Positions 1 to 21,592 of a DNA stretch of 29,637 nt are shown here, piece after piece. Under the pieces are notes generated by a model. It worked only from the letters and a program-made list of their open reading frames with translations, was not told the DNA's origin and made no database searches. Position 1 is the stretch's first letter. The number at the start of each line of letters is the position of its first letter. Location of the stretch: positions 1 to 29,637 of IMG/VR virus record IMGVR_UViG_3300022932_000014. One strand, given 5' to 3'. This DNA comes from a virus. The position numbers were made by a program, and so were the translations under genes.

Positions 1-1898
1 AATACCTGGGCTTGTTCTTCGGCTTCTTGACCTGTACCTAATCCTAATTCTTTAGCTAATTCGTCATTTTTAACAGCATTTATTTGACGTTGAAAATCAA
101 AAAAGCCTTCCTGTACGCTACTTATAGCTTGATTACGTTCTATGTGAGCTATGGCCGATTCCGCATCAGCTAGTAATTCTCCTGTTAAATCACCTCTTTG
201 TATTGCTTGTTGTTTTGATTCTTGAGAAGCCTGTATTTTATTATTTGCAATTACATTATTTATATGGTTATCTGCTGTAAATGCATTAGCGTAATCAACT
301 GTTCTTTGTGTTTCTTCTCTCTCAGCCGTAACATCTCCAAATTTAAATCTGGAATGCACTCCTGCACCTAATACCCCAACAATAGCTCCTACAAGTCCTT
401 CTGAAAGTCCCTCTTTTGTGCCATAAGTGTCTTGAAGTGCTTCTGTAAATGCATCAGCCACTCCATAAGTTGTTTTTGTTTTTTCGGGGTCAAAAGCATT
501 TAGCATGTATTTTTCGGCAGTTTGTGAAACAACTCTTTGTCCCATTTCTTCTTGTGCTTCTGGAATTGCTGCCCCTAATACTCCCCAAACTTTACCTGCT
601 ATTCTCTGTCCTTTAGTTGCCTCTAAAGCTTTATACAGTATTTTACCTTCTTCTGTAATTGTTTTATCAAATCCAATACCTAATAAGCTTCTTTTTAGAA
701 AGCTATTACCTACATTTGGATTCACTGTTTTTCCTATTAATGCATTTCCAAATTGGGCTAAATTAGAGGTTCCTACAATAATCATATTAGCTCCAAAAAC
801 ATAATTTCCTGTTGTAGTTAATTGGTCTTTGAAAGCAGAATATTCTTCAGGTGTCGGGTCAACTCCATTTACTTTTTGATAATTTTCAAGCCAGTCGTGT
901 TCTGTGGAATTCATATATTGGCGTGCTTCCATTCCAGCCTCATAACCTGCTGAACGTGTTGCTACCAAAGCTACATCCGCTATTTTTCTTATTTTATATG
1001 CATTTATAGAAGTAGTTTTATTTATCTCTCCTATCTTACCTAATACCTGATCACTTACTTTTCTACCTAACGCTGTAGTTTCTGCTTCTAGTAAGGCTGT
1101 AGATGATCCTTTAGACAATATTTTTGCCGCGTTTAAAGCTTCTAAAGTTTTTGCTTCCCCTCCAGCTCCTTTAATTGTCCACTTTGCTAATTTTGCTAAT
1201 TGACTTTCTTGAGCTAATAACCCTAATCCTCCTGTTGCAGCTGTCCATATTCCTTCTGAAATAAGTAAGCCCGCTGTAAATGATAATCCTCCAAATACTT
1301 TATCTGCCCAGAAATTAGTTGTAGCTACCTGACCAAATAAACTTGCATTATTTTCTTGTTCTGTATAATAATTTGGTAATTTATAGTCAAGTTTAACATT
1401 CAAATCATCAAGATAATTGTTGAAATCTGTATTATATGCTTCGGATAAACTTCCTTTAGATATCCCTTCAACTAAACTGTCAACGACTCCTAAAGTCCCT
1501 CCTAATACAGCAACACCTGTTTTACCAAGTAACTTACCAAATCCGTTTGTCCATTTTTCAGATGTTGTTTGTTGTTGCGCAAGCCTTTCTTGGTTATTTG
1601 TACCTGGTATAAAATTCTCATACCTTCCTATATATTCTCCATTAGAAAGAGGCGTGTAAGCTTCATTGTAAGACTCATTAGCATATCCCTTCAATGCTCT
1701 TGGTTCTTCTTTAAATTGAGAGCCAAATAAGGAAGGTGCTTGTGCAAAAGGGTTTGAAGATAAGTCAGGCTGAACTTCTTTTTTCCTTACATCTTGTGCA
1801 ATAAAAGTGGTAGGTGTAGTAATAACAGGAGCCACTGTTGCATCTGCTAGTAATTGAGTATCTATTGGATTATAACCTGCTGTAGTTGGTTCTGCCAT
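1..1898 (-). CDS. Large virion cargo/ejection-type protein, N-terminal 632 codons (truncated at window edge; absent from ORF track)
   Basis: ATG at 1898, 4 nt after the upstream TAA. My translation is open to the window edge (MAEPTTAGYNPIDTQLLAD...NFWADKVFGGLSFTAGLLISEGIW...PEAQEEMGQ...EAEEQAQV). It has several Gly/Ala-rich hydrophobic stretches. Its position matches the giant cargo/virion-RNAP-associated genes of crAss-like phages, but no RNAP motif is visible in this part. Confidence 0.8.
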   Translation of the reverse strand, partial: MAEPTTAGYNPIDTQLLADATVAPVITTPTTFIAQDVRKKEVQPDLSSNPFAQAPSLFGSQFKEEPRALKGYANESYNEAYTPLSNGEYIGRYENFIPGTNNQERLAQQQTTSEKWTNGFGKLLGKTGVAVLGGTLGVVDSLVEGISKGSLSEAYNTDFNNYLDDLNVKLDYKLPNYYTEQENNASLFGQVATTNFWADKVFGGLSFTAGLLISEGIWTAATGGLGLLAQESQLAKLAKWTIKGAGGEAKTLEALNAAKILSKGSSTALLEAETTALGRKVSDQVLGKIGEINKTTSINAYKIRKIADVALVATRSAGYEAGMEARQYMNSTEHDWLENYQKVNGVDPTPEEYSAFKDQLTTTGNYVFGANMIIVGTSNLAQFGNALIGKTVNPNVGNSFLKRSLLGIGFDKTITEEGKILYKALEATKGQRIAGKVWGVLGAAIPEAQEEMGQRVVSQTAEKYMLNAFDPEKTKTTYGVADAFTEALQDTYGTKEGLSEGLVGAIVGVLGAGVHSRFKFGDVTAEREETQRTVDYANAFTADNHINNVIANNKIQASQESKQQAIQRGDLTGELLADAESAIAHIERNQAISSVQEGFFDFQRQINAVKNDELAKELGLGTGQEAEEQAQV

Positions 1899-7729: not shown

Positions 7730-10294
7730 TTATGAAAATCTTTTATTTTTAGTTCTTTTTAACTGTGGGGTTTCGTGTATTACTTTACCTTTGAATTGAT
7801 ACTCTTGATTAGGATACATCATTTGTTGATTTCCATATTCATCTACACCCAAAATAGGGTAATTGACATTTTTCATCGTAATTAATCCTGAATCAGTTGG
7901 GACAATAACTTCTTGTTGAGGATAATCATAAACACCATTCGGGCTTATAGGAATATTCCCACCATTTTGTGCGTAAACAGCACTAGTTTCTTGGTTGTTT
8001 TGAGCTATTGTATTTATGGCTTTTACTATTTTATCATCATCATAAGCCTTGTAAAATATCTCTTCATCTAGGCCTTTTTCTTTGACCATTTGTTGAAGTT
8101 GTTTTATATCTACTTTTTGTCCTGGTTTTAAACCTAAGTTTTGTCTAAACATGTGAAAATTACCATATGTTTCTTCAGGATGTGATAAGTACTCTCTATC
8201 TCTTTTAAATGTCCCTTTCTGTTGGTTATTTACATCTCCTAAAACTCTTTGTAGCGCTGGTGCAACTACAGCATCTATATTGGAGGCATGGCTAAGTTCA
8301 TGACCTAAAACACTTCTCATATTAGGCGCTTTAGAATATGGAGTGGATTCTCTTTGTCTTTGATATAGTATCTCTCCTGTTTTTTCATTTGTACCTCTAT
8401 TACTAGTTTGCTGAAAATATGGACTAGTATACAAAGCGTCTGCTCCTATTTTAGACAAGTATCCAATATCTTCATTAGTTTCCGCCTCTCTTATTGGAGT
8501 TCTTAACCCTTTACCAATAAAATCTTGAAGCCTATTAGCATCTAAACCTGTGTTCTTAGAAAATTTTTCTTTAGTGGCTGGATCAGAATACCAATTAATA
8601 AAATCTTGAGAAGCTTGTTGCTCAACTAATTTATCTCTCTTTAGGGGTTTATCTGTAGGTTTTACTGTTCTTACATAATTTGTTTCTCCTTGGTTTAAGG
8701 AACTGTTTATTTTAATTACATCAGATAATTTTCTTTTATCGTTATTATCCTCTATTAAAACTTTAGGTATAATGTTAACCAGCCCTGTTTGTCCAAATAC
8801 TGATGACAGAGCTCCTCCATTTTGTCCATAAATTAAATTATTATCTTCATTTTGCGCTACATTATTCATTAAATATATAATAGCTTCGTCTGAATAAACA
8901 CTTTGTAATCTATCTTTAGTGGCAGATTTTTTAGTTCTTTTAAACATCTCTGGAGTAAAATCTTGCTTTCCTGCATCATAAACACCTTCTCTTTTAAGTA
9001 GGTATCTGAACGCATCTAAATCTGCTTTGTTTTCTCCTGGAATTAAATCATGTTCAGGGATATTTTTATCTTTTTTATGATAATTAGTAAGCCTTCTTAT
9101 ATCTGTCTTATTAAACCTGTCTTCTGGAAATAAACTAGTAGTGGCATGTGATCTCTCGTGAGTCTCTATTTCCTCAGATGTTGGTTGAGTTGCATTTGGA
9201 TAAACATCTCTATGAGTATCAATATTATATTTAGAATCTAATTGTATTTTCTTTGTAAATGGACTGTAATAACTGCCTCTTTCACCTTCTTCTTGTTTTT
9301 TACCTAATAATGACTGTATTACATTTGGTGCTGGTGGAGCTTTATATGGAAAAACTTCAGGGTTTGTTCCTACTAATCTTCTTTTTATTTCACCCTCAAC
9401 ATCTTCATAACCGCTATTTTTTAAACGTTCTCTATATTTAGGCGAGTTAAGGTATTCTAGAGTGAATTGCTTTGGTGTTATTGGATTAGCGTTATTCATA
9501 GGAAGATCATAAATACCTCCTCTTTGAAAGTATTGCTCTTGATTATAGATATCTTCTTGTTGTACTTGGTTAGGATCAACATACTGTACTTGGGAAGCTA
9601 CTAATAAATCTTGTATGAATCTTTGTTGATTAATTTGTTCTTGCTGTTTACTGTTTAACTCTTCTTTGGCCTTTTTTACGGCTTCTGTTTCATTTTCTGG
9701 CGCTAAGGTAGGTATATCTATAATGGAAACCAAATTACTTACTTCTGGTGTGTATGTAATAGGTATTTCATTAGTAGGTGGCGTATAACTGTCTATTGCT
9801 CTTTGTGCTGTTCCTTTTAAAAACTGTTGTTGGTCTAACTCTGTGAGGGAACTGCCTGATAATTTTTTATAAGTGTTTAATACTAAGTTTTGTCTTTTAG
9901 TATCAGCATGAAATTTTACTTTTGGCCTCTCATAATCATCTGATACAATTCTACCTGTATTATAAACACCTTGCGCTGTTCTTAACTTATCTCCTGCTTT
10001 TTTATGAGTATTATTTAATTCCCAATTTACAAAATCTAATTGGTTGTCTAAATCTGTCCAATTTGATCCGTATTTATTTTGTAAGGCCTCTAATCTTCCA
10101 CTGTGCCACTGCGCGATACCTTTTGATCCTTTTGTATCCGCTGTTCCTAATATAGTAGTATTCAGATTACTTTCTCTTATCAAATTACCCACAATACCTG
10201 CTGCTTGGTCAGGAGTCCATCCATAACTAAGCATTTTCTTATAGGCGTATTCTTCTTTGTTTTGTTGCTTTATTTTATCTTTTATTAGCACCAT
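7730..10294 (-). CDS. Virion protein: phage tail lysozyme (Phage_lysozyme2-like) + two HExxH zincin-like domains + small C-terminal domain
   Basis: N-terminal AAGIVGNLIRES...GIAQWHSGR...QLDFVNWEL...YERP. HERSH (9146-9160) and HELSH (8288-8302), each with a downstream Glu. TAATG overlap with the upstream gene. Confidence 0.8.
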   Translation of the reverse strand: MVLIKDKIKQQNKEEYAYKKMLSYGWTPDQAAGIVGNLIRESNLNTTILGTADTKGSKGIAQWHSGRLEALQNKYGSNWTDLDNQLDFVNWELNNTHKKAGDKLRTAQGVYNTGRIVSDDYERPKVKFHADTKRQNLVLNTYKKLSGSSLTELDQQQFLKGTAQRAIDSYTPPTNEIPITYTPEVSNLVSIIDIPTLAPENETEAVKKAKEELNSKQQEQINQQRFIQDLLVASQVQYVDPNQVQQEDIYNQEQYFQRGGIYDLPMNNANPITPKQFTLEYLNSPKYRERLKNSGYEDVEGEIKRRLVGTNPEVFPYKAPPAPNVIQSLLGKKQEEGERGSYYSPFTKKIQLDSKYNIDTHRDVYPNATQPTSEEIETHERSHATTSLFPEDRFNKTDIRRLTNYHKKDKNIPEHDLIPGENKADLDAFRYLLKREGVYDAGKQDFTPEMFKRTKKSATKDRLQSVYSDEAIIYLMNNVAQNEDNNLIYGQNGGALSSVFGQTGLVNIIPKVLIEDNNDKRKLSDVIKINSSLNQGETNYVRTVKPTDKPLKRDKLVEQQASQDFINWYSDPATKEKFSKNTGLDANRLQDFIGKGLRTPIREAETNEDIGYLSKIGADALYTSPYFQQTSNRGTNEKTGEILYQRQRESTPYSKAPNMRSVLGHELSHASNIDAVVAPALQRVLGDVNNQQKGTFKRDREYLSHPEETYGNFHMFRQNLGLKPGQKVDIKQLQQMVKEKGLDEEIFYKAYDDDKIVKAINTIAQNNQETSAVYAQNGGNIPISPNGVYDYPQQEVIVPTDSGLITMKNVNYPILGVDEYGNQQMMYPNQEYQFKGKVIHETPQLKRTKNKRFS

Positions 10295-11049
10295 TAGTCT
10301 GTTATTTCTACTTGATAATTTATTAAAGCTTCATATGTTTTTGGAGCTAATTTAGGTTTCCATATTTCGGCAACTTCTTTTATGTGTGTCTCTTTGGCTA
10401 CTTTGTAAGCCTGAAATGCTTCTTCAGGGGTGTTGAACATACCTAAGTGAATTAGTTTATTCTCTACTCTAATCTTAGCGTCAAATCTTCCGTTTCTTCT
10501 ACTTACACCTAAAGGTAGTTCCCCTCTGCAAGATTGCCTTTTTGTCAGTAGTTTATTTATCTCTAAAGGCACAAAACAGCAATTTTCAGGAGAATATATT
10601 TTATTTCCTTTTATAAGTACATCTTTATCTAAATGCCATCCTTCCATATGAGGTTTCCAATTTTCTTCATACCATTTTGCAAAGTTTTGGAAATTGTGCC
10701 ATTCTGAATTAACACTACATCCAATGTAAGTGGGATATTTTTTATGTAATTTATCATCATAGCTTCTCTGTAATGCAGACCCCCAAGATTTATAATACTT
10801 TGTCACTACACCATCTATAATAGACTTATAATCCCCCTCTCCCATATATCCAACTCCATAGACATTTTTTAAATATGGATTTTTAATTGAACCACTTTTA
10901 ATATTTGTATAAGTTCTATTATATAATATATACTTTTCGTTAACTATTATTGTGCAATTACGCGCACTGATATAATCAATTATTCTAACAGATTCACATT
11001 GGTTGGATATGTGAATTTCTCCAACCCTTTCTTTTTTCTTTGATTTCAT
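10294..11049 (-). CDS. Free-standing putative homing endonuclease (HNH-related domain + AP2-like C-terminus), copy 1
   Basis: VYGVGY...EWHNFQNFAKW...LDKDVLIKGNKIYSPENCCFVP..IN, followed by GVS...F.AKI...HLGMFNTPEEAFQAY (AP2-like). Confidence 0.75.
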   Translation of the reverse strand: MKSKKKERVGEIHISNQCESVRIIDYISARNCTIIVNEKYILYNRTYTNIKSGSIKNPYLKNVYGVGYMGEGDYKSIIDGVVTKYYKSWGSALQRSYDDKLHKKYPTYIGCSVNSEWHNFQNFAKWYEENWKPHMEGWHLDKDVLIKGNKIYSPENCCFVPLEINKLLTKRQSCRGELPLGVSRRNGRFDAKIRVENKLIHLGMFNTPEEAFQAYKVAKETHIKEVAEIWKPKLAPKTYEALINYQVEITD

Positions 11050-11065
11050 TTATAAATTATTTGTC

Positions 11066-11097
11066 CAAAGATATAATTTTATTTTGATATATGCAAC
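11066..11097 (-). promoter_or_regulatory. Bacteroidota-type promoter for endonuclease copy 1
   Basis: GTTG-N20-TATCTTTG, 16 nt upstream of ATG 11049. Confidence 0.75.
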
Positions 11098-12038
11098 TAT
11101 TGCTCTAAATTTACTTTTGAACTTAAAAGATTAATTGCATATCTAAGTCTTGTCTCTATTGACTGTTCTAACCTAATTGTGAATACATTGCTGCGGAGAG
11201 GTTCAAGAACATTCTTGCCACTAAATTTTACAATATCTGTATTAATTGTTTTATTTATTTGATTTTTATCCCAAATCCAAGTAGGCTGGTTAGCCTTATG
11301 AGAGAGCATCCTATTATAAAAATAATTAGTAGTATACTCACTTCCCACCTTCGTCACAAGTACTTCTTGATACGAACCATCTTTTGCGGTAATAGGATAT
11401 TTAGAAATAAATGATAATTGACCTGTATTTGGTACAAGTCTTAGTTCTCCTGAATTGGTAAACGGTGAGTAAATCCACATCTTATTAAAAGGCTTATCAT
11501 CTATTTGAGCTGAATCATAGGCATTGTGATACCTACTCACTTCCATTTCAAAACCAACTGTTTTTAACAGTATTTCTCCATATTCTCGTTTCAGCATGTA
11601 TTCAACTAAGAATGGATACTTTTTACCGTAAAATACTTGATAACTTCTATTAGTTAGTAAGTGTGACCACAATCCTAATTCTGTTGAGTCTGTACTTTGG
11701 TTTATTCCTGTTTGGAAATAATTTTGGTGAGGGATGTAATAGTTTGGAGTGTAACTGTAAAACCCTACCCACTTTTGCTCTATGGGAGAAAATGCGATCG
11801 TCCAGCTAACGTCTTCAAAATAGTTAGGATCTGTCACTGAAACAGGTGTTTTTACTTTTTCAATTGTTGGCTCAACGCTCTCAGTACAAGAACATACTGC
11901 ATTTCCATTTGGGAGTATTATTGTTTCACACCCATCATCGCATACAATATCATTTATAACTACTGTGCAGTTACAATATACTATTCCTTCTATTGTTTGT
12001 TGAGAGCATGTCTCATTTGGACAATTACATGTTGCCAT
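11097..12038 (-). CDS. C-terminal part of the tail stabilisation/muzzle protein, encoded as a separate ORF (313 aa)
   Basis: Start moved to ATG 12038 (MATCNCPNETC), 2 nt after the endonuclease stop. FEDVSWTIAFS...WVGFYSYTPNYY...LWSH...FYGKKYPFLVEY matches what I recall following the GYD...ITKKDY block in crAss-like muzzle proteins. Confidence 0.7.
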   Translation of the reverse strand: MATCNCPNETCSQQTIEGIVYCNCTVVINDIVCDDGCETIILPNGNAVCSCTESVEPTIEKVKTPVSVTDPNYFEDVSWTIAFSPIEQKWVGFYSYTPNYYIPHQNYFQTGINQSTDSTELGLWSHLLTNRSYQVFYGKKYPFLVEYMLKREYGEILLKTVGFEMEVSRYHNAYDSAQIDDKPFNKMWIYSPFTNSGELRLVPNTGQLSFISKYPITAKDGSYQEVLVTKVGSEYTTNYFYNRMLSHKANQPTWIWDKNQINKTINTDIVKFSGKNVLEPLRSNVFTIRLEQSIETRLRYAINLLSSKVNLEQ

Positions 12039-12040
12039 AG

Positions 12041-12625
12041 TTAATCGGTTATTTCTACTTGGTAGTTTATTAATGCTGAATAGCATGCTTCTGTAATCTT
12101 ACTGCGCCATTTATATGCAATCTCTTTAATATAAATTTCTTTGGCGATCTTGTATACTTGGAAAGCTTCTTCAGGAGTATTAAATATTCCTAAATGATCT
12201 CTATCTTTACCAAATCTGGCTCTAAATTTTTTACCTGATTTTGTAACACCTATTGGATATTTTCCTCTTGATTTTCCGCTTTTTATAAATAAACTATTAA
12301 TTTCAAGTGGAACTAGACAACATGCTTCGGGAGAGTAAATTCTATTACCTTTTATTAAAATATCTTTATCTAAAGCCCAACCCAACATTTTTTCAACTGT
12401 ATACCTTTTTTCAAACCATTTTGCGAAGTTTTGAAAATTGTGCCATTCTTGATGTACTTCACATTTAATATAAGAAGGTTTCGTTTTATGGTATTTGGGG
12501 TCATAACACCTTTGTAACATACTTTGCCATATCTTGTAAGACTTATTAGAACTAATATACTTACCTATCCCTCTATATCCAACACCATATACAGAAGGTT
12601 TTAATCTGTGATCAATCTCAATCAT
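12041..12625 (-). CDS. Free-standing putative homing endonuclease (HNH-related + AP2-like), copy 2
   Basis: WQSMLQRCY...EWHNFQNFAKW...LDKDILIKGNRIYSPEACCLVP..IN...HLGIFNTPEEAF. Ends in ALINYQVEITD exactly like copy 1. Confidence 0.75.
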   Translation of the reverse strand: MIEIDHRLKPSVYGVGYRGIGKYISSNKSYKIWQSMLQRCYDPKYHKTKPSYIKCEVHQEWHNFQNFAKWFEKRYTVEKMLGWALDKDILIKGNRIYSPEACCLVPLEINSLFIKSGKSRGKYPIGVTKSGKKFRARFGKDRDHLGIFNTPEEAFQVYKIAKEIYIKEIAYKWRSKITEACYSALINYQVEITD

Positions 12626-12640
12626 TTTATTTTTAATTTT

Positions 12641-12700
12641 TTACAAATATAGTAATAATATTGTTAATACACAAATTTCACTCAGACAATTACAAACCAT
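12641..12700 (-). pseudogene. Relic 5' end of the muzzle-C gene (19-aa mini-ORF MVCNCLSEICVLTILLLYL)
   Basis: ATG GTT TGT AAT TGT CTG AGT GAA ATT TGT versus ATG GCA ACA TGT AAT TGT CCA AAT GAG ACA TGC at 12038; both give CNCxxExC. It begins 11 nt after the muzzle-N stop behind an A-rich leader. Confidence 0.6.
12644..12675 (-). promoter_or_regulatory. Bacteroidota-type promoter for endonuclease copy 2
   Basis: TTTG-N20-TATATTTG, full consensus, 18 nt upstream of ATG 12625. Confidence 0.8.
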
Positions 12701-12711
12701 ATTTAATTTTT

Positions 12712-15700
12712 TTAAGGTATTATAGTCCATCCTTTAGCTAAAAGTAATGTTTCTGTATTTGTTCCTGTAATACCTAGTGCAGGTATATTACTTGATGCTT
12801 CTAGTATTCCATTATTTCCAGCTAACGCTATCCAACTTGTTTCCGTGTTCCAAGATGTAACAGTAATTTTATTATTATTTAAATACAATCGCTGAAGGCT
12901 ATTTGGTAAAGCTAAACTTGGATTAAATATTACAATATCATTAGCATTTAAGAATAGTTGCTGAAGGCTACTTGGTAAAGGAATTGTGGGATTAAATGTG
13001 ACAATCTCATTAACTTGTAATCCTAAATCTAATAGCCCACTTGGTAAAGCTAAACTTGGATTAAATATTACAATATCATTAGTAGCCAGATTTAAATTTT
13101 TTAAACTAGTTGGCAAAGGAATTGTAGGATTGAAAGTTACGATTTTATTAGCTTGTAAATTCAAAGTTTCAAGTCCATTCGGTAAAGGGGTTGTAGGGTT
13201 GAATGTGACAATATCATTACTAACTAAATTTAAATTTTTTAAACTAGTTGGCAAAGGAATTGCAGGATTGAAAGTTACTATATTATTATTTTGTAAACTT
13301 AAATTTAACAACCCATTTGATAAAGCTTCAATAGGGTCAAAAACTACAATAGAATTAGTAACAAAATTTAAACCTGTAAGACTTGGTATTTTTACAATGT
13401 TAACCGTAGTTACATTTTTACTGTCTATTATTAAACTTGTCATATTAGTATTAACTCTAAATCTCACTCTTCCTCCAACTAAAGAGAAATTTGTTATAGT
13501 TGCAAATGTTGTTCCAGATTGCGTTAAGAAAAATGATTCCCAAGCACTCACTGTAGACAATGTTCCCCAATTTGTTGAAACAACATCAAAATTTATTGCG
13601 GGCGGTTGAACTGTCACTGTAACAACTGTCGTAATTGAAATACATCCATCAATTGTAGGTGTAATCGTATAAACGGCTGTTCCCGAAGTAATTCCATCAT
13701 TAATTAATAAGTCAGTTATTGATGTTCCTGATCCGCTTGTTGCTCCTGTAACTCCACTTTGAACTACTGTCCATGTGAAAAGTGCTCCTGGATCTCCACT
13801 TAAAGTGATGTTTGTTGTTTGGCCACTATTTATGTTTTGAGAAGGCGGTGTTGCAACTACTGTAGCTTCACAATCACAATCTGCTGGTACTGTTGTTGAA
13901 AGTGTACAGGTCTGTGTATCTTCATCATAAATATAACCATCTGGGCACAAAGTCCCTGATAATGTTGTTTTTTCACATAACTCTGTTATTGGATTATATT
14001 CGTACCCTATCGGACAAGTTATCTCACTTTCTCCACAATCTGTGTAAAAACCAATATTCTTGTCAAATTTTAGACATGGATCAACTTTAGGTATATAGTC
14101 TTTTTTAGTTATAAATACGCGTCTGAATCGACTATCGTAACCCATAGCTATACCAACTCCATTTATTGCATTATCTGTATCTAAATCGCTTATATTAGCT
14201 ATTTGAGATTTTAGTATTTTAAATGGAAGATGTTCTTTAAACCAATTTCTCATTCCACTTGGTTTACCATTTATAAGACTTGATATCTCGTTCATTCCTT
14301 GACCACCACTTGGGATCTCAATAACTTGGCCTCTTTTAGCATCTACGTGATAATGACCAAATTCACAACTTACAGATTCTGAACTTCCTGTTCCTCCAAA
14401 TCCAAGATCTGTTTCTGAATAGGTCATTGGTCTTCTTGCAAAAGCTGAAGATAAATTTCTTGAATCCGCTCTTTTACCATCATCTACGGCCACATCAATA
14501 GCATTGAATAGAGAAGTTGCATTTTCTTGTCTAATTAGAATTTGCTCTCTTTCAATTGTGCGGATATCTTTTAGTTTTCCATATTTACTATCAAACTCAT
14601 AAAAGTCTAGTGGTTTGTAATTTAAGTAAGGATCATTATAATTATTTTCACTGTTGTCTGGTTGCGACCACATTATACCATTAGGCTTATCATTTCTACA
14701 ATCGCTTTCTGACTGATCAAAATTATCTGACAAGGTTCTATATGCTGTAGTTGTTACAGGTTTAGAATATATTTGATTATAAAAGAAAAATTCTCCTTTT
14801 TTAATTGATACATTTTTTTCTTGTGTCCATTCAGATGTATCTCCTGTATTTGGATAAAAGTTTCTTTCTAATGTTGGTTCGGCGGTTCTATTCCAGGTAT
14901 TTATTCTAGTTTCAGTTAAGAAATTAGGAACTCCATAATAATATAGATAAAATTTGCTTGGTGGTCTATAGTAATTAGTTTGTTTAGTTTCACAATCAAA
15001 TTTTAAATCATAATCTATGTCTGGAAATAAAGCAGACTGTCTTCTGTAGTCTGTCATTACTTCATAATCTACATAAAATCTAGGTTCTCTCCCTATATTA
15101 GAATAAAATTTATAATTAAAGGGTGTTAAACTTGCTAAACCAAATGCTGTATCTGTAAACAACGGCATTTTTCTTTTAAGCGTATGTCTAGAAATAAAAG
15201 TGTCTCCTCCAAAAATAGATAAGCATGTTGTTTTAGGATTTTTCAAGTCTCCTCTGTATCCTGTTGACAACCATTTTATAGAATTAATTGTACCGTATTG
15301 TGAAGGTAAGTAGTTTTTTAAAGCCACATATGGATTGGCAACATTTTTCTTTATTACTTTACTTATTCCTGTAGTACAAGCATTATTTTGACTTGCTATA
15401 GTTAAAGACGAGGTATTTGTATCTATCTTATTGTTATCAAAAGATACATATTCTGTAGGATAATTTAGTGTATTAGAAACACCTAAAGTTAACAGAACAG
15501 ATTTTTCTCTATCTAAATTATTTATGCTTATTTTTTCTCCTGTGACATCATCTACTTGTGAAAAATTACCTTCTTTTAAATACTTTGCGGAATATAGAGA
15601 CCTGATTTGATTTCCATTTTCTTGTAATAATTGCATGTAATTATACTTAGCACTAGAATGAAAATATGAAGAAAAGTTTTCAGGTTGCCCTAAATCTCTA

Positions 15701-18700
15701 AATGCTTTTATCCATTCTAATCTGTGTCGCCCGTAATTTACAACTACAGAACTAATTGCTGATAATGCTCCTGCTATAATAGAAAGCACAATACCTGCTG
15801 GATTGACAGATACTACAAATCCTGCGGCAACTCTATAGTTCTCCCCTGCATTTGCCAACTGTACTGCAACTTCTGTAGCTACCTCTAGTCCTGCTAATAA
15901 TCCTGCTAAGTCTTTTGCTTTTCTTGTTAAGATTACAAATTTTGGATGATCTTTTACTTCATTAAAATAACTGTTATCTGTTTGTCCAAATACATATCCC
16001 TGCACAGATAATTCTGTTGGTAGTGTGTATCTATAATAATCTGTTTCTGGACTGTGATAAGTGAATTTATCGTTCTTTAATCCATTGTAAGGATGTGGGA
16101 TAAATGTTGTTCTACTTCTGTCTGAATAATTTAAAATATCACTTCCTAAATCATTATAAGGATAATTAGAATAGTAAATAGACTGTGTTTTGTCATTATC
16201 ATCTATATACTTTCTCATATCAAATATAAGACCTGAAGACATTATACTTCTATCTTGTGCTATATCTCCTCTGAAGATTTCATATCCTGATATTTGATTT
16301 CTTTTTTCTTCACTTAATAATCCGTTATTGACCGAGATATCTAAGAATGAATTGATTGTAGTTTCATCTATTGTTATTCCTAATGGATATATCACTGAAT
16401 CACTTTGAGTCAATTGAGGATTTTCATACATGAAAGGACTAACCTTATTATCAGGAAATTTAAAATGTCTTATATTTCTACAAGTAAAATTTACTAAAGG
16501 TTTTTCAACACTATCTTTCTTCCACTGGTAATTGCCTTCTGAATCTAAAATAGGTATGAACACCTCTGAAATAGTTGTACCTTCTACAAATTCTAATTCA
16601 AATTTTTCTCTTTGAAAGATATTTATATCCGCAGGTTTTATTTTTAAAGTGCTAGAATCATATAAAGAAGTATTATCGGGATAAATCTCTTGACTTTCCC
16701 AATAAGCAAAATCTCCTTTTTTATATGGAGTGGCTATACATGAATTTGCAACAGGTTTATTGAATGTACAAGTTGCCGTGTAAGTTTGTTTTTTATCTAT
16801 TCTTATAGATTCATAAGTTACATCTATTCTGGAGTATTCTCTACTTCTAATAACTACAGCAAAACACCCACTTAAAGGTGCTGTTCTGTACACTATTTCT
16901 TCTGCGCAATTCTCTTGGCTTATGATTTTAGCATCAATAGCTACATAAAAGTTTTGACCTGAAATTTGACCTATATTTGTAGAAATTCCTGCTTCATTAG
17001 TAATAGTCCAATCTAAAGAGTTATCTGCTTTCTGGAAAAACAACATCTCTCCTTGTGTTGCATCTACTACTTTAGAATATAAAGGTGTTGTTGAATTACA
17101 TTTATTATAAATAGAAAATCTTATATCATTTCCTGCTGAAATATTATCTGTTTGCTGTAATTCTTTTATTTTAGATACTTCTAATACGAATCTATCTCTA
17201 CTTAATATATCTCCCTTAAACCATAAAACTCCTTTGTGTAATTTATTTGTCCATTCTGCTCCTGAAGCAACTGTATCTTTTGTTGTTTGAAGTTCTGCTA
17301 CAGTTTCTGCCCCATAATAATCATGAAAATATCCTTGATTAAAACTACTTGTAGGTGTAACTTCTGCAATTGCATCAGCATATGTACATTCTAAATTTTC
17401 AAATTGAAGAGTTCTGTAAAAAGCAGTTCTTGGTTGAGGGGGGAATCCTCCTCTACATTGCATAAAAGCAGTTTCAAAATCTGTATTTCTTTTTGGATTC
17501 CCTGTACTTGTATCTAATTCATAAATTGTACAAGTTTGTGGAGGTTTTGTTTTAATATACTCTGTTGGGAAAACAGCATCCACCATAGTAGCAGATTCTC
17601 CGACAATGGCTCCTACAATTAATTCTTCATCATCTAATATGGGCGCTTCACAATTATTATAATTTGGTGTGCAATTTAAGTTACTATAACAGTCTATATC
17701 AAAATAATTACAGAAAGGGTAAGAATTTGCATCAGAAGGAGACGGACAATTTGCATAAGTTAAACAATCACCATTAGTAATAGTGTCAGTTATAAAGGTT
17801 GTTAAATCTACGTAATTCTGAGTTGTTTCTATACTAAATGTTGCGCCTGGTGTAGTGGTAACATTTTGATAAACACAGTTTTTTTGAATGTCTTCCTGTA
17901 CTTCAACTATTTCCAAAGAGTCAGAAGAACAAAAATCTTCATCTTCAGTTGCTGTATTATAATATTGCCAATATTTAGTTCTGTCTGTTGAATTACAAGC
18001 GCTTTTATTTGACTCTATAGAAATTCTATCTTTATTAGTGATAGGCACTTCTATTAAATCATTTTCTTTTGCATTTCTATTAATTAAAGGAAATAAAGAT
18101 GTTTTATAACCACCTTCTAATAAAAATCTTATAGAGTAAGGTACTACTTCATCTCTATTGATAGATAAATATAGTGAGTCTTTTACTCCGTCTTTATATA
18201 GATCTTCTTTAGCTATATGTGTTTGCCACTTTAAAAAAGAACCTAATAAATTAACTACAGGTTGCAGATTTATTTCTTTTTCAGTTGTTATTCCCGCGCC
18301 TATTAATGAATTATTACTCTCAGTTAAAAATTCCCAGCGTTGAATATATAAATTCTCTCTGATTAAATCAGATAATTCAATTGTTTGTTTATTTTGTTCC
18401 CCTCCATAAATAACTGTTGTGTCGTTTATATTGTGAATTCCTTCTATGAAAAATCGTGTCACTCCAACATCCTCTAAAGTTGTTTGAATAACTGCAATTT
18501 TATAATGTGTAAATCTTTTATCTAAATTACCAACTTGAAGTTTAATAGAAAAATTAGTTGGTGTTCCTAATTCTGCTTGAGTTAAAGTAACATTATTTCT
18601 GTCAAATATTTGAATAGGGTTAGTTATAGAAGTATATTCTGATATTTCATTACCTAATTGATCTGTATAAGCAATTAGAAACTCATAAGTCCCTAATTTG

Positions 18701-19413
18701 AGTCTTCCTCCTAATTCAATTGAAACTGGAGTTAATTCTGGTAAGTTATATCTTTTAAAAATAAGAAGTTTATCTGCGTCTAAACAGGTAGGAACTATTT
18801 CATCTACTCCGCAATTAATATCTCCTGTTTGTTTATATTGTTGTAAATTATCTAATACTATGTATCTAGGAGGTGTATTGTCATCAGTGAAGTATATTGT
18901 TTTACCACACTTCTCATTTTTTATAACTGTTTTTTTTATCGGCGAGTTAACAGAAAATTGAAATCCTTTTTCTGGTTCCCCCGCTAATATGTGACATTCA
19001 TCACTAAGTAATGTTTCATATATATTTAGTTCTGTCTGCGTAATATTTTCTAATGGTTCCGCTAAATCAAAGTATTTTACACATCCTTCACAATCATTCT
19101 GCAAGTCGTCTATATTTTGAATTTGCTGAACATTTTTTATCTGGCCAAATTCTCCCACGCCTGTTGTAGGATTTACTAGGAAGAAATAGGTTGAATTGGA
19201 ATAAATATCATTTGTACCATTAATTACTTTAAATCCTGCTTTAAATCTAGAGGAAAGTAAATTAGACATCTCATTGGTTAAAGTGAAACTTCCTCCATCT
19301 ATCCCATCAAAAAGGCCATTCAAAAGAGTTGAGTAATCAGCTTCTCCTAAATTATATTGATCTCTATTTAATCCTCTTTGAGGTTGATTTAATTTTATAT
19401 CTGGTTTAGCCAA
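12712..19413 (-). CDS. Tail stabilisation/muzzle protein (P22 gp10-like, crAss-type), N-terminal part, with C-terminal PKD-like and LRR domains (2233 aa, TTG start)
   Basis: GLNRD...LTNEMSN start, RDEVVPYSIRF, FAYWES.E.YP, IRHFKFPDN, FGGDTFISR, VDAKRG, GMRNWFKEHLPF, GYDSRFRRVFITKKDY. Lies directly downstream of the tail tubular gene. Confidence 0.8.
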   Translation of the reverse strand: MAKPDIKLNQPQRGLNRDQYNLGEADYSTLLNGLFDGIDGGSFTLTNEMSNLLSSRFKAGFKVINGTNDIYSNSTYFFLVNPTTGVGEFGQIKNVQQIQNIDDLQNDCEGCVKYFDLAEPLENITQTELNIYETLLSDECHILAGEPEKGFQFSVNSPIKKTVIKNEKCGKTIYFTDDNTPPRYIVLDNLQQYKQTGDINCGVDEIVPTCLDADKLLIFKRYNLPELTPVSIELGGRLKLGTYEFLIAYTDQLGNEISEYTSITNPIQIFDRNNVTLTQAELGTPTNFSIKLQVGNLDKRFTHYKIAVIQTTLEDVGVTRFFIEGIHNINDTTVIYGGEQNKQTIELSDLIRENLYIQRWEFLTESNNSLIGAGITTEKEINLQPVVNLLGSFLKWQTHIAKEDLYKDGVKDSLYLSINRDEVVPYSIRFLLEGGYKTSLFPLINRNAKENDLIEVPITNKDRISIESNKSACNSTDRTKYWQYYNTATEDEDFCSSDSLEIVEVQEDIQKNCVYQNVTTTPGATFSIETTQNYVDLTTFITDTITNGDCLTYANCPSPSDANSYPFCNYFDIDCYSNLNCTPNYNNCEAPILDDEELIVGAIVGESATMVDAVFPTEYIKTKPPQTCTIYELDTSTGNPKRNTDFETAFMQCRGGFPPQPRTAFYRTLQFENLECTYADAIAEVTPTSSFNQGYFHDYYGAETVAELQTTKDTVASGAEWTNKLHKGVLWFKGDILSRDRFVLEVSKIKELQQTDNISAGNDIRFSIYNKCNSTTPLYSKVVDATQGEMLFFQKADNSLDWTITNEAGISTNIGQISGQNFYVAIDAKIISQENCAEEIVYRTAPLSGCFAVVIRSREYSRIDVTYESIRIDKKQTYTATCTFNKPVANSCIATPYKKGDFAYWESQEIYPDNTSLYDSSTLKIKPADINIFQREKFELEFVEGTTISEVFIPILDSEGNYQWKKDSVEKPLVNFTCRNIRHFKFPDNKVSPFMYENPQLTQSDSVIYPLGITIDETTINSFLDISVNNGLLSEEKRNQISGYEIFRGDIAQDRSIMSSGLIFDMRKYIDDNDKTQSIYYSNYPYNDLGSDILNYSDRSRTTFIPHPYNGLKNDKFTYHSPETDYYRYTLPTELSVQGYVFGQTDNSYFNEVKDHPKFVILTRKAKDLAGLLAGLEVATEVAVQLANAGENYRVAAGFVVSVNPAGIVLSIIAGALSAISSVVVNYGRHRLEWIKAFRDLGQPENFSSYFHSSAKYNYMQLLQENGNQIRSLYSAKYLKEGNFSQVDDVTGEKISINNLDREKSVLLTLGVSNTLNYPTEYVSFDNNKIDTNTSSLTIASQNNACTTGISKVIKKNVANPYVALKNYLPSQYGTINSIKWLSTGYRGDLKNPKTTCLSIFGGDTFISRHTLKRKMPLFTDTAFGLASLTPFNYKFYSNIGREPRFYVDYEVMTDYRRQSALFPDIDYDLKFDCETKQTNYYRPPSKFYLYYYGVPNFLTETRINTWNRTAEPTLERNFYPNTGDTSEWTQEKNVSIKKGEFFFYNQIYSKPVTTTAYRTLSDNFDQSESDCRNDKPNGIMWSQPDNSENNYNDPYLNYKPLDFYEFDSKYGKLKDIRTIEREQILIRQENATSLFNAIDVAVDDGKRADSRNLSSAFARRPMTYSETDLGFGGTGSSESVSCEFGHYHVDAKRGQVIEIPSGGQGMNEISSLINGKPSGMRNWFKEHLPFKILKSQIANISDLDTDNAINGVGIAMGYDSRFRRVFITKKDYIPKVDPCLKFDKNIGFYTDCGESEITCPIGYEYNPITELCEKTTLSGTLCPDGYIYDEDTQTCTLSTTVPADCDCEATVVATPPSQNINSGQTTNITLSGDPGALFTWTVVQSGVTGATSGSGTSITDLLINDGITSGTAVYTITPTIDGCISITTVVTVTVQPPAINFDVVSTNWGTLSTVSAWESFFLTQSGTTFATITNFSLVGGRVRFRVNTNMTSLIIDSKNVTTVNIVKIPSLTGLNFVTNSIVVFDPIEALSNGLLNLSLQNNNIVTFNPAIPLPTSLKNLNLVSNDIVTFNPTTPLPNGLETLNLQANKIVTFNPTIPLPTSLKNLNLATNDIVIFNPSLALPSGLLDLGLQVNEIVTFNPTIPLPSSLQQLFLNANDIVIFNPSLALPNSLQRLYLNNNKITVTSWNTETSWIALAGNNGILEASSNIPALGITGTNTETLLLAKGWTIIP
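12860..13380 (-). repeat. Leucine-rich repeat array: about 8 units of 23 aa (69 bp)
   Basis: Consensus LxxLxLxxNxIVxFNPxxxLPxx. 12903-12944 is identical to 13041-13082 (42 bp); 13090-13140 matches 13228-13278 (51 bp, 1 mismatch). Confidence 0.9.
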
Positions 19414-20898: not shown

Positions 20899-21556
20899 TA
20901 GGATTTAAATTCGGATTTGTATCTTCTTGAATTTGCTTAGTTAAAGATAACTGTTTTAATGTTTCCTGGACTACAACTTCTTCTAATTTATTAGGACAGA
21001 CAAATTCAAAATCCCAAACAGAATCACATTTATTTTTACTGCATTCAGATATTTGCTCTAACTCATATAAGTCCTGAGAAATTAAATATAAGTTTCCCGT
21101 ATAAAATTCATAATCTGGGATGTAAATATAATTGTCTTTGATGTAAAAATACTTTTTATTTGTTTTTCCCGTTCTTTCCTTATTTTTTCGGTATTGTGTG
21201 GCTGTTATAGGATCAAATGCATAACTTCCGTCTATACTTGTAACTTCTTTTAAGGTGTGTCCATATTTTGACCAAATAAGTTCTGGAATCTTTTTCTTAC
21301 TTCTCATTAAAGTCTTGCAAGTTTTAAATTCCACTATTGGGCAATCTATAATGTCAATGTTTTTAAATTCCGTACAAGGTATTTCTTTATATATATTAGC
21401 TTCTCTGTATAAACTTTTATCATTTAATTTCTGACTAATATAAAATTTTGCTTTGCTCTCTAAAGTAGATAATACAAGCCTCCTACTAATTCTACTATCT
21501 TTGGAATCAGCTTTTAGTGTGTCTAATACAATAGATGTTATTTCTAAGTTTGTCAT
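20891..21556 (-). CDS. crAss-like tail ring/adaptor protein
   Basis: DSRISRRLV...MRSKKKIP...VTSIDG...YFYIKDNYIYIP...EF.CP pattern, plus gene order. Confidence 0.6.
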   Translation of the reverse strand: MTNLEITSIVLDTLKADSKDSRISRRLVLSTLESKAKFYISQKLNDKSLYREANIYKEIPCTEFKNIDIIDCPIVEFKTCKTLMRSKKKIPELIWSKYGHTLKEVTSIDGSYAFDPITATQYRKNKERTGKTNKKYFYIKDNYIYIPDYEFYTGNLYLISQDLYELEQISECSKNKCDSVWDFEFVCPNKLEEVVVQETLKQLSLTKQIQEDTNPNLNPNG

Positions 21557-21560
21557 GTTG

Positions 21561-21592
21561 CAAATTTAGTGATATTTAATTACTTTAACAAA
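21561..21592 (-). promoter_or_regulatory. Bacteroidota-type promoter for the tail-core operon (probably leaderless)
   Basis: TTTG-N20-TAAATTTG-CAAC-ATG. Confidence 0.8.

Follow-up and report, generated by a model that had tools for sequence, protein, structure and literature searches.

The DNA considered here is a 29,637-nucleotide stretch (the window), positions 1 to 29,637 of the IMG/VR virus record IMGVR_UViG_3300022932_000014, a phage genome of 143,127 bp with a CheckV completeness of 100%. Every gene in the window lies on the minus strand. Between positions 11,097 and 19,413 is the gene for the muzzle, a tail-tip protein that is the hallmark of crassvirus-like phages and likely makes their first contact with the host envelope. 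It is divided into two open reading frames (ORFs), a large N-fragment and a small C-fragment, and this very probably represents an inherited two-piece design, not an error or the result of endonuclease damage. Between the two conserved blocks lie, in order, two CPxGY..C modules, a PKD_5 domain, leucine-rich repeats (LRRs), a stop codon, an ORF of 194 amino acids (aa) and two further Cys modules. In the direction of transcription, the features are as follows.

12712..19413, minus strand: muzzle N-fragment gene, 2233 aa, with a TTG start and a TAA stop at 12712-12714.
14095..19392, minus strand: conserved N-block, ending in ...RVFITKKDY; an ITKKDY-type motif occurs in 119 of 122 homologue clusters.
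13870..14094, minus strand: outgoing Cys-rich stalk, with a C-LKFDKNIGFYTD-C hairpin and two CPxGYxY..C modules, then CDC.
13603..13821, minus strand: PKD-like domain (PF19406 PKD_5), E 9.3e-9, over the curated cut-off.
12814..13467, minus strand: leucine-rich repeat region at the end of the N-fragment, about eight repeats; phmmer against the PDB finds the Leptospira LRR protein 4u09 (E 3e-11).
12671..12700, minus strand: relic C-fragment start (MVCNCLSEIC...), 11 nucleotides (nt) past the TAA, aligning with the intact starts of the related loci L005 and L007.
12644-12675, minus strand: TTTG-N20-TAtaTTTG, a promoter-like motif of the Bacteroidota type, which precedes the ATG of the HNH-family ORF by 19 nt.
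12041..12625, minus strand: HNH-family/AP2-like ORF, 194 aa, matching phrog_953 (E 2e-63) over profile positions 198-388 of 420.
11097..12038, minus strand: muzzle C-fragment gene, 313 aa from MATCNC.
11886..12038, minus strand: return Cys-rich stalk of two C..C..CxC modules, in which C4, C6, C22, C33 and C49 show conservation of 90% or more among 56 C-fragments.
11139..11846, minus strand: conserved C-block (YFEDVSW... to the end), with matches to phrog_37948 (profile positions 2051-2278) and in structure.
10294..11049, minus strand: paralogous HNH-family ORF, 251 aa, just downstream of the C-fragment and 57% identical to the 194-aa ORF.

A first-pass annotation, made from the letters of the window, had placed these features correctly: GYDSRFRRVFITKKDY occupies residues 1758-1773 of the 2233-aa ORF (14095-14142), PADCDC lies at 13870-13887 and MATCNC at 12021-12038, FEDVSWTIAFS is present at 11787-11819, and the Cys modules, PKD domain, LRRs, TAA stop and endonuclease-family ORF are all found between the blocks. 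In the LRR region, Pfam LRR_4 and LRR_8 score under their cut-offs, and searching the PDB by sequence returned LRR proteins only and no muzzle. Read from its first ATG (12086), the C-fragment ORF has 329 aa and overlaps the HNH-family ORF. This ATG is probably not the start, which is placed at 12038 because the C-fragments of relatives have 312-313 aa and start at M-x-CxC.

The same annotation had described the two blocks as parts of one chain in crAss-like homologues, and this is borne out. PHROG 37948 ("virion structural protein", 2289 positions) spans both ORFs, residues 8-1784 of the 2233-aa ORF corresponding to profile positions 7-1743 (E=0) and residues 81-316 of the small ORF to positions 2051-2278 (E 3e-57). 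The N-fragment has 969 homologues at E<=1e-10. An alignment of the small ORF to the C-termini of unsplit muzzle proteins, which the annotation had proposed as a check, gave BLASTP matches to gp042 of Cellulophaga phage phi4:1 (43% identity, E 6e-59) and to the muzzle protein of csAssE-Sib (39% identity, E 5e-53); judged by sequence comparison, this likeness is far beyond chance. Both come from the nearest annotated phages and are single chains, collinear over the two blocks and set in the same gene neighbourhood. The csAssE-Sib "Muzzle protein" (WOZ57294, 2257 aa) has about 22 aa at the break site. In the phi4:1 protein (YP_008240630, 2289 aa), which its GenBank annotation gives as a virion protein by tandem mass spectrometry, an insert of about 306 aa without Cys residues occupies this position. 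The window protein is unmatched by Pfam PF25731 (crAss_MUZ) at E<=0.01; homologues about 60% identical to it, two split and two with fused inserts, do match that family (E 1e-18 to 1e-20). Sequence and fold together place the protein in the crassvirus muzzle/podophage nozzle family, with the nozzle halves on separate ORFs that each have their own start and stop (TAA at 12712-12714; ATG at 12038). The echo that had been remarked on between the two junctions is also a family trait: M-x(0-3)-CxC opens 73 of the 75 proteins of 290-335 aa, and CxC lies 40-130 aa past ITKKDY in 32 of 49 split N-fragments. Thus, the comparisons support an ancestral single chain that was opened at a variable loop, leaving two polypeptides that would have to cooperate.

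The two-piece form is widespread among relatives of the window. A length-restricted search with the small ORF returned 99 proteins, 73 of them 290-335 aa long and 40-89% identical. Four closely related loci, L004, L005 and L007 (89-92% identical) and L006 (85%), have a TAA followed by 10-11 nt of A/T and the ATG of a C-fragment of 312-313 aa, with no gene between, and seven further IMG/VR loci, about 50% identical, are split with spacers of 10-26 nt and without an endonuclease gene. Measured against four relatives, the ratio of non-synonymous to synonymous substitution rates (dN/dS) of the C-fragment is 0.04-0.10 overall, 0.12-0.23 in the stalk and 0.04-0.07 in the C-block. Purifying selection on both parts is strong. 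The C-block, present once in the 143,127-bp genome, holds the residues that vary least across the whole family.

These data bear directly on three other explanations of the locus. Since the window comes from a single metagenomic contig, the break might reflect an assembly or sequencing artefact, or a C-fragment ORF that is decaying beside an N-fragment working alone. The same architecture is found, however, in at least 12 independent contigs of different samples and in 73 C-fragment clusters, and neither the selection on stalk and C-block nor the invariance of the latter fits a decaying gene; this explanation is the least probable of all. It has also to be asked whether the ORFs are rejoined in expression, by a self-splicing intron, read-through or recoding, frameshifting or bypass, to yield one full-length muzzle. 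Exons flanking an endonuclease-like ORF are the classic arrangement of an intron, and group I introns, inteins and recoded stops abound in crAss-like phages (PMC7886860). Nevertheless, a search of Rfam over positions 10500-15000 gave no match at E<=1, with no group I or II core and only 86 nt upstream and 2 nt downstream of the 194-aa ORF, and in the relatives an intron is excluded because a spacer of 10-26 nt is below intron size. Read-through, frameshifting and bypass are excluded because the eleven split loci show all three frame relations (+0, +1 and +2) and stop at TAA or, at one locus, at three consecutive stops, TAG-TAA-TAA. The codon preceding the stop varies between loci, leaving no shared take-off and landing pair, and every C-fragment retains its own ATG at the same place. 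The stop in the window is TAA, whereas the stop recoding reported for crAss-like phages concerns TGA or TAG (PMC7886860). Rejoining in expression is accordingly very unlikely. Splicing and assembly error, which the first-pass annotation had named as capable of overturning its reading, are both excluded through these eleven independent loci with their short spacers.

The third explanation attributes the split to the insertion of a homing endonuclease gene, with the present HNH-family ORF or an ancestor of it as the culprit. T4-like phages have such 'genes in pieces', which arose through free-standing homing endonuclease genes (Aeh1 nrdA/mobE; T4 genes 39 and 60/mobA): an essential gene is likewise found as two ORFs around an endonuclease-family ORF, and the products are thought to reassemble. 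The HNH-family ORF does lie exactly between the pieces in the window and in its near-twin L003/L017, and in relatives HNH paralogues and GIY-YIG-like ORFs move about this structural module. Unlike the T4-like case, the endonuclease-family ORF of the window postdates the split and is absent from most split relatives: it occurs at this site solely in the window and L003/L017, is missing in L004, L005, L006, L007 and the seven other split loci, and its presence varies among genomes that are 89-94% identical. Furthermore, the window keeps the old stop-spacer-ATG junction (12671-12714) upstream of the ORF. The relic, read from 12700 to 12671, is ATG GTT TGT AAT TGT CTG AGT GAA ATT TGT, and past it come the promoter-like motif, the 194-aa ORF, TAA, 2 nt and a fresh start, ATG GCA ACA TGT AAT TGT, of the L004-type allele. 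From the relic and the fresh start it appears that a cassette entered about ten codons into the C-fragment gene, bringing a replacement 5' end, and from the relic junction and the ORF-free relatives that the split is older than the cassette. The present ORF is thus refuted as the maker of the split, having landed in a gene that was already in two pieces, and on sequence grounds it is a secondary mobile insertion. An ancient endonuclease insertion, later lost, may have been the original cause. Taken as a whole, an origin by endonuclease insertion is unlikely.

The nature of the inserted ORF is itself less clear-cut. In both HNH-family ORFs the matches to PHROG entries named 'HNH endonuclease' are confined to the C-terminal half of the profile, and a nuclease domain was not found in either by Pfam at E<=10 or by NCBIfam at E<=1. 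The 194-aa ORF is about 55 aa shorter at its N-terminus than the 251-aa paralogue. Nuclease activity is therefore putative; what the comparison of genomes with and without the 194-aa ORF shows is mobility. The position of the promoter-like motif just upstream is suggestive of a promoter, the motif by itself being weak, and a scan for sigma-70 promoters and terminators gave background levels.

The two-piece muzzle is best understood against the variation at the same site across the family. A set of 122 homologue clusters was assembled from 119 related large proteins, the window protein and two annotated proteins, and the ITKKDY and YFEDVSW ends were located in each. At the break site 44 clusters have a short hairpin of 15-25 aa, 29 have a single chain with an insert of 160-550 aa, and 49 are split, the protein stopping 180-740 aa past ITKKDY without a C-block. 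Many fused inserts lead from one or two outgoing CPxGY..C modules into a VWA domain and a terminal Cys, and then through a return module ...CTCP... (...VVCTCPEGY...) into the C-block; the modules that flank these VWA inserts are the same as those of the outgoing stalk in the window. In a model of one fused homologue (L010) the insert is an integrin-I-like VWA domain (Z 18). In a Pfam domain census that covered 22 split proteins and 21 with fused inserts, the split tails contained PKD_5 (eight), LRR_4 (two), Ig_7 (two) and DUF285, DUF11, TSP1_spondin and Lcl_C (one each), and the fused inserts VWA families exclusively, wherever Pfam names a domain. Single-linkage clustering of tails and inserts merged all of them into one large cluster.

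The first-pass annotation had proposed that opening a surface loop created a free C-terminus able to carry accessory domains. That split tails carry such domains (PKD, LRR, Ig, DUF285, DUF11 and TSP1) is upheld; that the end is free and does not return is not universal, because 28 of the 49 split N-fragments have a Cys in the last six residues (...SLPTC, ...LSSC, ...SLTPC), as in P0107, P0112, P0143, P0154, P0123 and P0195, and this Cys matches the one that closes the fused VWA insert. Some split tails terminate in a VWA-like domain, the same as in the fused forms. The tail in the window ends in ...GWTIIP, without a Cys.

Trees, built with FastTree except for the subset used in the approximately unbiased (AU) test, indicate that the split state has changed often. 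A tree built from the 700 residues that precede the junction requires 12 changes, at least 10 of them forced by well-supported branches, and a tree of the C-block requires 13. Even sisters about 80% identical can have different states: P0113 is fused with a VWA domain, and P0114 is split with an LRR-like tail. Since the same cut point and return stalk are found everywhere, it is tentatively preferred, over many independent cuts, that a single cassette spread through recombination in its invariant flanks, with repeated splitting or re-fusion as alternatives. An AU test on 45 representatives ruled against the split having arisen once on the N-block tree (difference in log-likelihood 1312, p 1e-5).

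Structural comparison was made with single-chain models of moderate confidence. The C-fragment (313 aa, 56-sequence alignment) was modelled by AlphaFold2 as a single chain, with a mean predicted local distance difference test score (pLDDT) of 72 and a confident beta-sandwich at residues 136-313. Residues 79-129, the most invariant sequence of the family, have a pLDDT below 50 when modelled alone, as would be expected of strands that depend on a partner. In the Foldseek ranking the crAss001 muzzle comes first (7qol_P, E 1.6e-7, probability 1.00; 7qok_A, E 2.1e-7), with the next match at E 0.04. VIA-align likewise matches the C-fragment to the crAss001 muzzle, in further agreement with the alignment to muzzle C-termini, at Z 12.2 and a root-mean-square deviation of 3.7 over 149 residues spread over chain range 11..1371; the nozzles of Pa223, SU10, PhiM1, T7, P22 and Kp9 follow at Z 4.4-6.5, with ranges that also span both termini. 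The models suggest that the C-block comprises the closing part of the propeller and the ring-joining/platform sandwich. The C-fragment would thus provide the C-terminal portion of the ring-joining/platform domain, a domain to which both ends of the chain contribute in nozzles, together with closing propeller strands predicted not to fold without the N-fragment. Completion of both domains in trans fits the observation that the match spans both ends of the crAss001 chain.

A model for the assembly can be proposed on this basis. The N-fragment would leave the fold past the ITKKDY strand and the Cys-bracketed hairpin, exit through the two CPxGY..C modules and end in an adhesin-like PKD-LRR arm. 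The C-fragment would open with two matching Cys modules and continue into the last conserved strands and the beta-sandwich, finishing the propeller and the ring-joining domain as happens within the one chain of unsplit relatives. Co-transcription and translational coupling of the two genes are suggested by the spacing of stop, 10-26 nt and ATG in relatives; in the window, where the HNH-family stop is followed after 2 nt by an ATG, coupling would pass through the HNH-family ORF. The halves would lock by beta-strand complementation, as in the split nozzle of podophage A1002, and the outgoing and return Cys stalks, which are contiguous partners in the fused VWA forms, would pack against each other and keep the base of the arm in place. 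A hexameric muzzle would then display six PKD-LRR adhesin arms.

A more speculative extension, held with well under even confidence, is that the break and its paired Cys stalks form a conserved 'socket' through which any adhesin array, including long ones with widely separated ends, could be swapped at the 3' end of the N-fragment gene. The cassette would consist of stalk, tail, stop, start and return stalk and would move between phages by recombination in its ITKKDY and YFEDVSW flanks, and the CxC motifs at the new ends could form an inter-chain disulfide or metal clasp. If so, the muzzle, beyond the tail fibres, would be a fast-evolving determinant of host range or adhesion.

Several observations weigh against this account of the locus, or limit how far it can be taken. 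The split form was found in none of the cultured phages of the phage collection, all split-form phages being uncultured. That both polypeptides are in the virion and bind each other is a prediction, as are the geometry of the break and any pairing of the stalks; the model of a fused VWA homologue has a pLDDT of 63 and a predicted template modelling score of 0.41 and is poor beyond the VWA domain and the sandwich. The name 'homing endonuclease' for the 194-aa ORF derives from PHROG names and the pattern of mobility, and the promoter-type motif is not enriched, with five matches in the window against 2.25 expected. There is partial support for a topological rationale, in which a VWA domain, with its adjacent termini, fits a loop, which arrays of the PKD-LRR or DUF11-DUF285 kind cannot, and a cut in the chain lifts the constraint; the Cys-ended tails (28 of 49) and VWA-like tail ends weaken it.

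Full-text searches on split muzzle proteins, and on tail stabilization proteins or homing endonucleases of crAss-like phages, yielded no description of a split muzzle. Variation in muzzle length has been attributed to insertions (Bayfield et al. 2023, PMC10172136). The crAss001 muzzle, gp44 (PDB 7QOK/7QOL), belongs to the same tail-tip family and has a ring-joining domain and a T7-nozzle-like seven-bladed propeller into which IG1, IG2 and a "crass" domain are inserted (PMC10172136). It is a single chain of about 1370 residues; its described insertions are in the crass and IG2 domains and not at the late break site, and neither a split nor Cys stalks nor PKD, LRR or VWA modules are described for it (PMC10172136). 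The nearest parallel comes from Pseudomonas podophage A1002, which has a split nozzle composed of gp39 (nozzle-rope) and gp42 (nozzle-base), whose strand complementation was seen by cryo-electron microscopy (PLoS Biol 2026, PMC13730344). There too a nozzle-family protein is made as two polypeptides, one of which is completed by the separate C-terminal strands of platform and propeller. A1002, however, belongs to an unrelated phage group and represents an independent event, with non-adjacent genes and no Cys stalks. The accessory part also differs: in A1002 the platform-C piece bears a long fibre-docking rope, whereas in the window it is the N-fragment that bears the arm. Family-wide polymorphism between fused, insert and split forms is not reported for A1002 (PMC13730344). 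A display site in a closed loop has its counterpart in the integrin alpha I-domain, a VWA domain set in a beta-propeller loop as in the fused relatives; this is an architectural analogy only, and the host proteins are not homologous.

The two-piece muzzle is found in about 40% of the homologue clusters of the clade, cut always at the same residue. With its assembly inferred, it would be a second natural case of nozzle-fold complementation after A1002, independent and far more widespread. The sequence comparisons point to the break site as a dedicated tail-tip display site, and likely a determinant of adsorption or host range in uncultured Bacteroidota phages. For annotation it follows that two "stabilization protein" ORFs of this kind are to be treated as one functional unit, and that an endonuclease-like ORF between them is not the sign of an intron.

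Some further features of the family and of the neighbouring genes were recorded. A fused muzzle homologue of 3070 aa (L025:1840-11052, with L018 listed alongside) has merely a 40-aa link at the break site, and its extra 800 or so residues are therefore placed at other insertion sites in the N-block. C-fragments with a longer N-terminal part occur at L014:10236-11403 (longer than 389 aa, continuing past the edge of the locus) and L019:11093-12154 (353 aa), and others, of 277-292 aa, have a single Cys module (P0018, P0020, P0021, P0040 and P0077); from these long and one-module forms it appears that the stalk of the C-fragment varies in length in units of a module.

The two HNH-family paralogues of the window bracket the C-fragment gene, and the downstream one keeps its place in relatives, where orthologues of the 251-aa ORF lie downstream of the C-fragment at L004:10992-11753 and L006:11008-11769. 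A second TTTG-N(17-21)-TAnnTTTG motif, at 21561-21592 on the minus strand, lies in the intergenic gap directly upstream of an ORF starting at 21556; the minus strand of the window has no match beyond these two. GIY-YIG-like ORFs are found at L007:13601-14197 and L005:4521-5417, starting MIGKHYLYRHIRSDKNEVFYVGIGT... and MKRVKEDIEIFYILYKTTNIVNGKE... respectively, between two large virion genes downstream of the muzzle, a block that was compared with L003:10992-16030. In genomes more than 85% identical, the products of these two virion genes measure 569 and 1109, 883 and 981, or 779 and 1238 aa. The comparison of the block downstream of the muzzle points to extensive shuffling of modules and much movement of endonuclease genes. 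In csAssE-Sib, an annotated gene for a TnpB-family RNA-guided endonuclease (L002:1530-2753) lies directly upstream of the unsplit muzzle gene.

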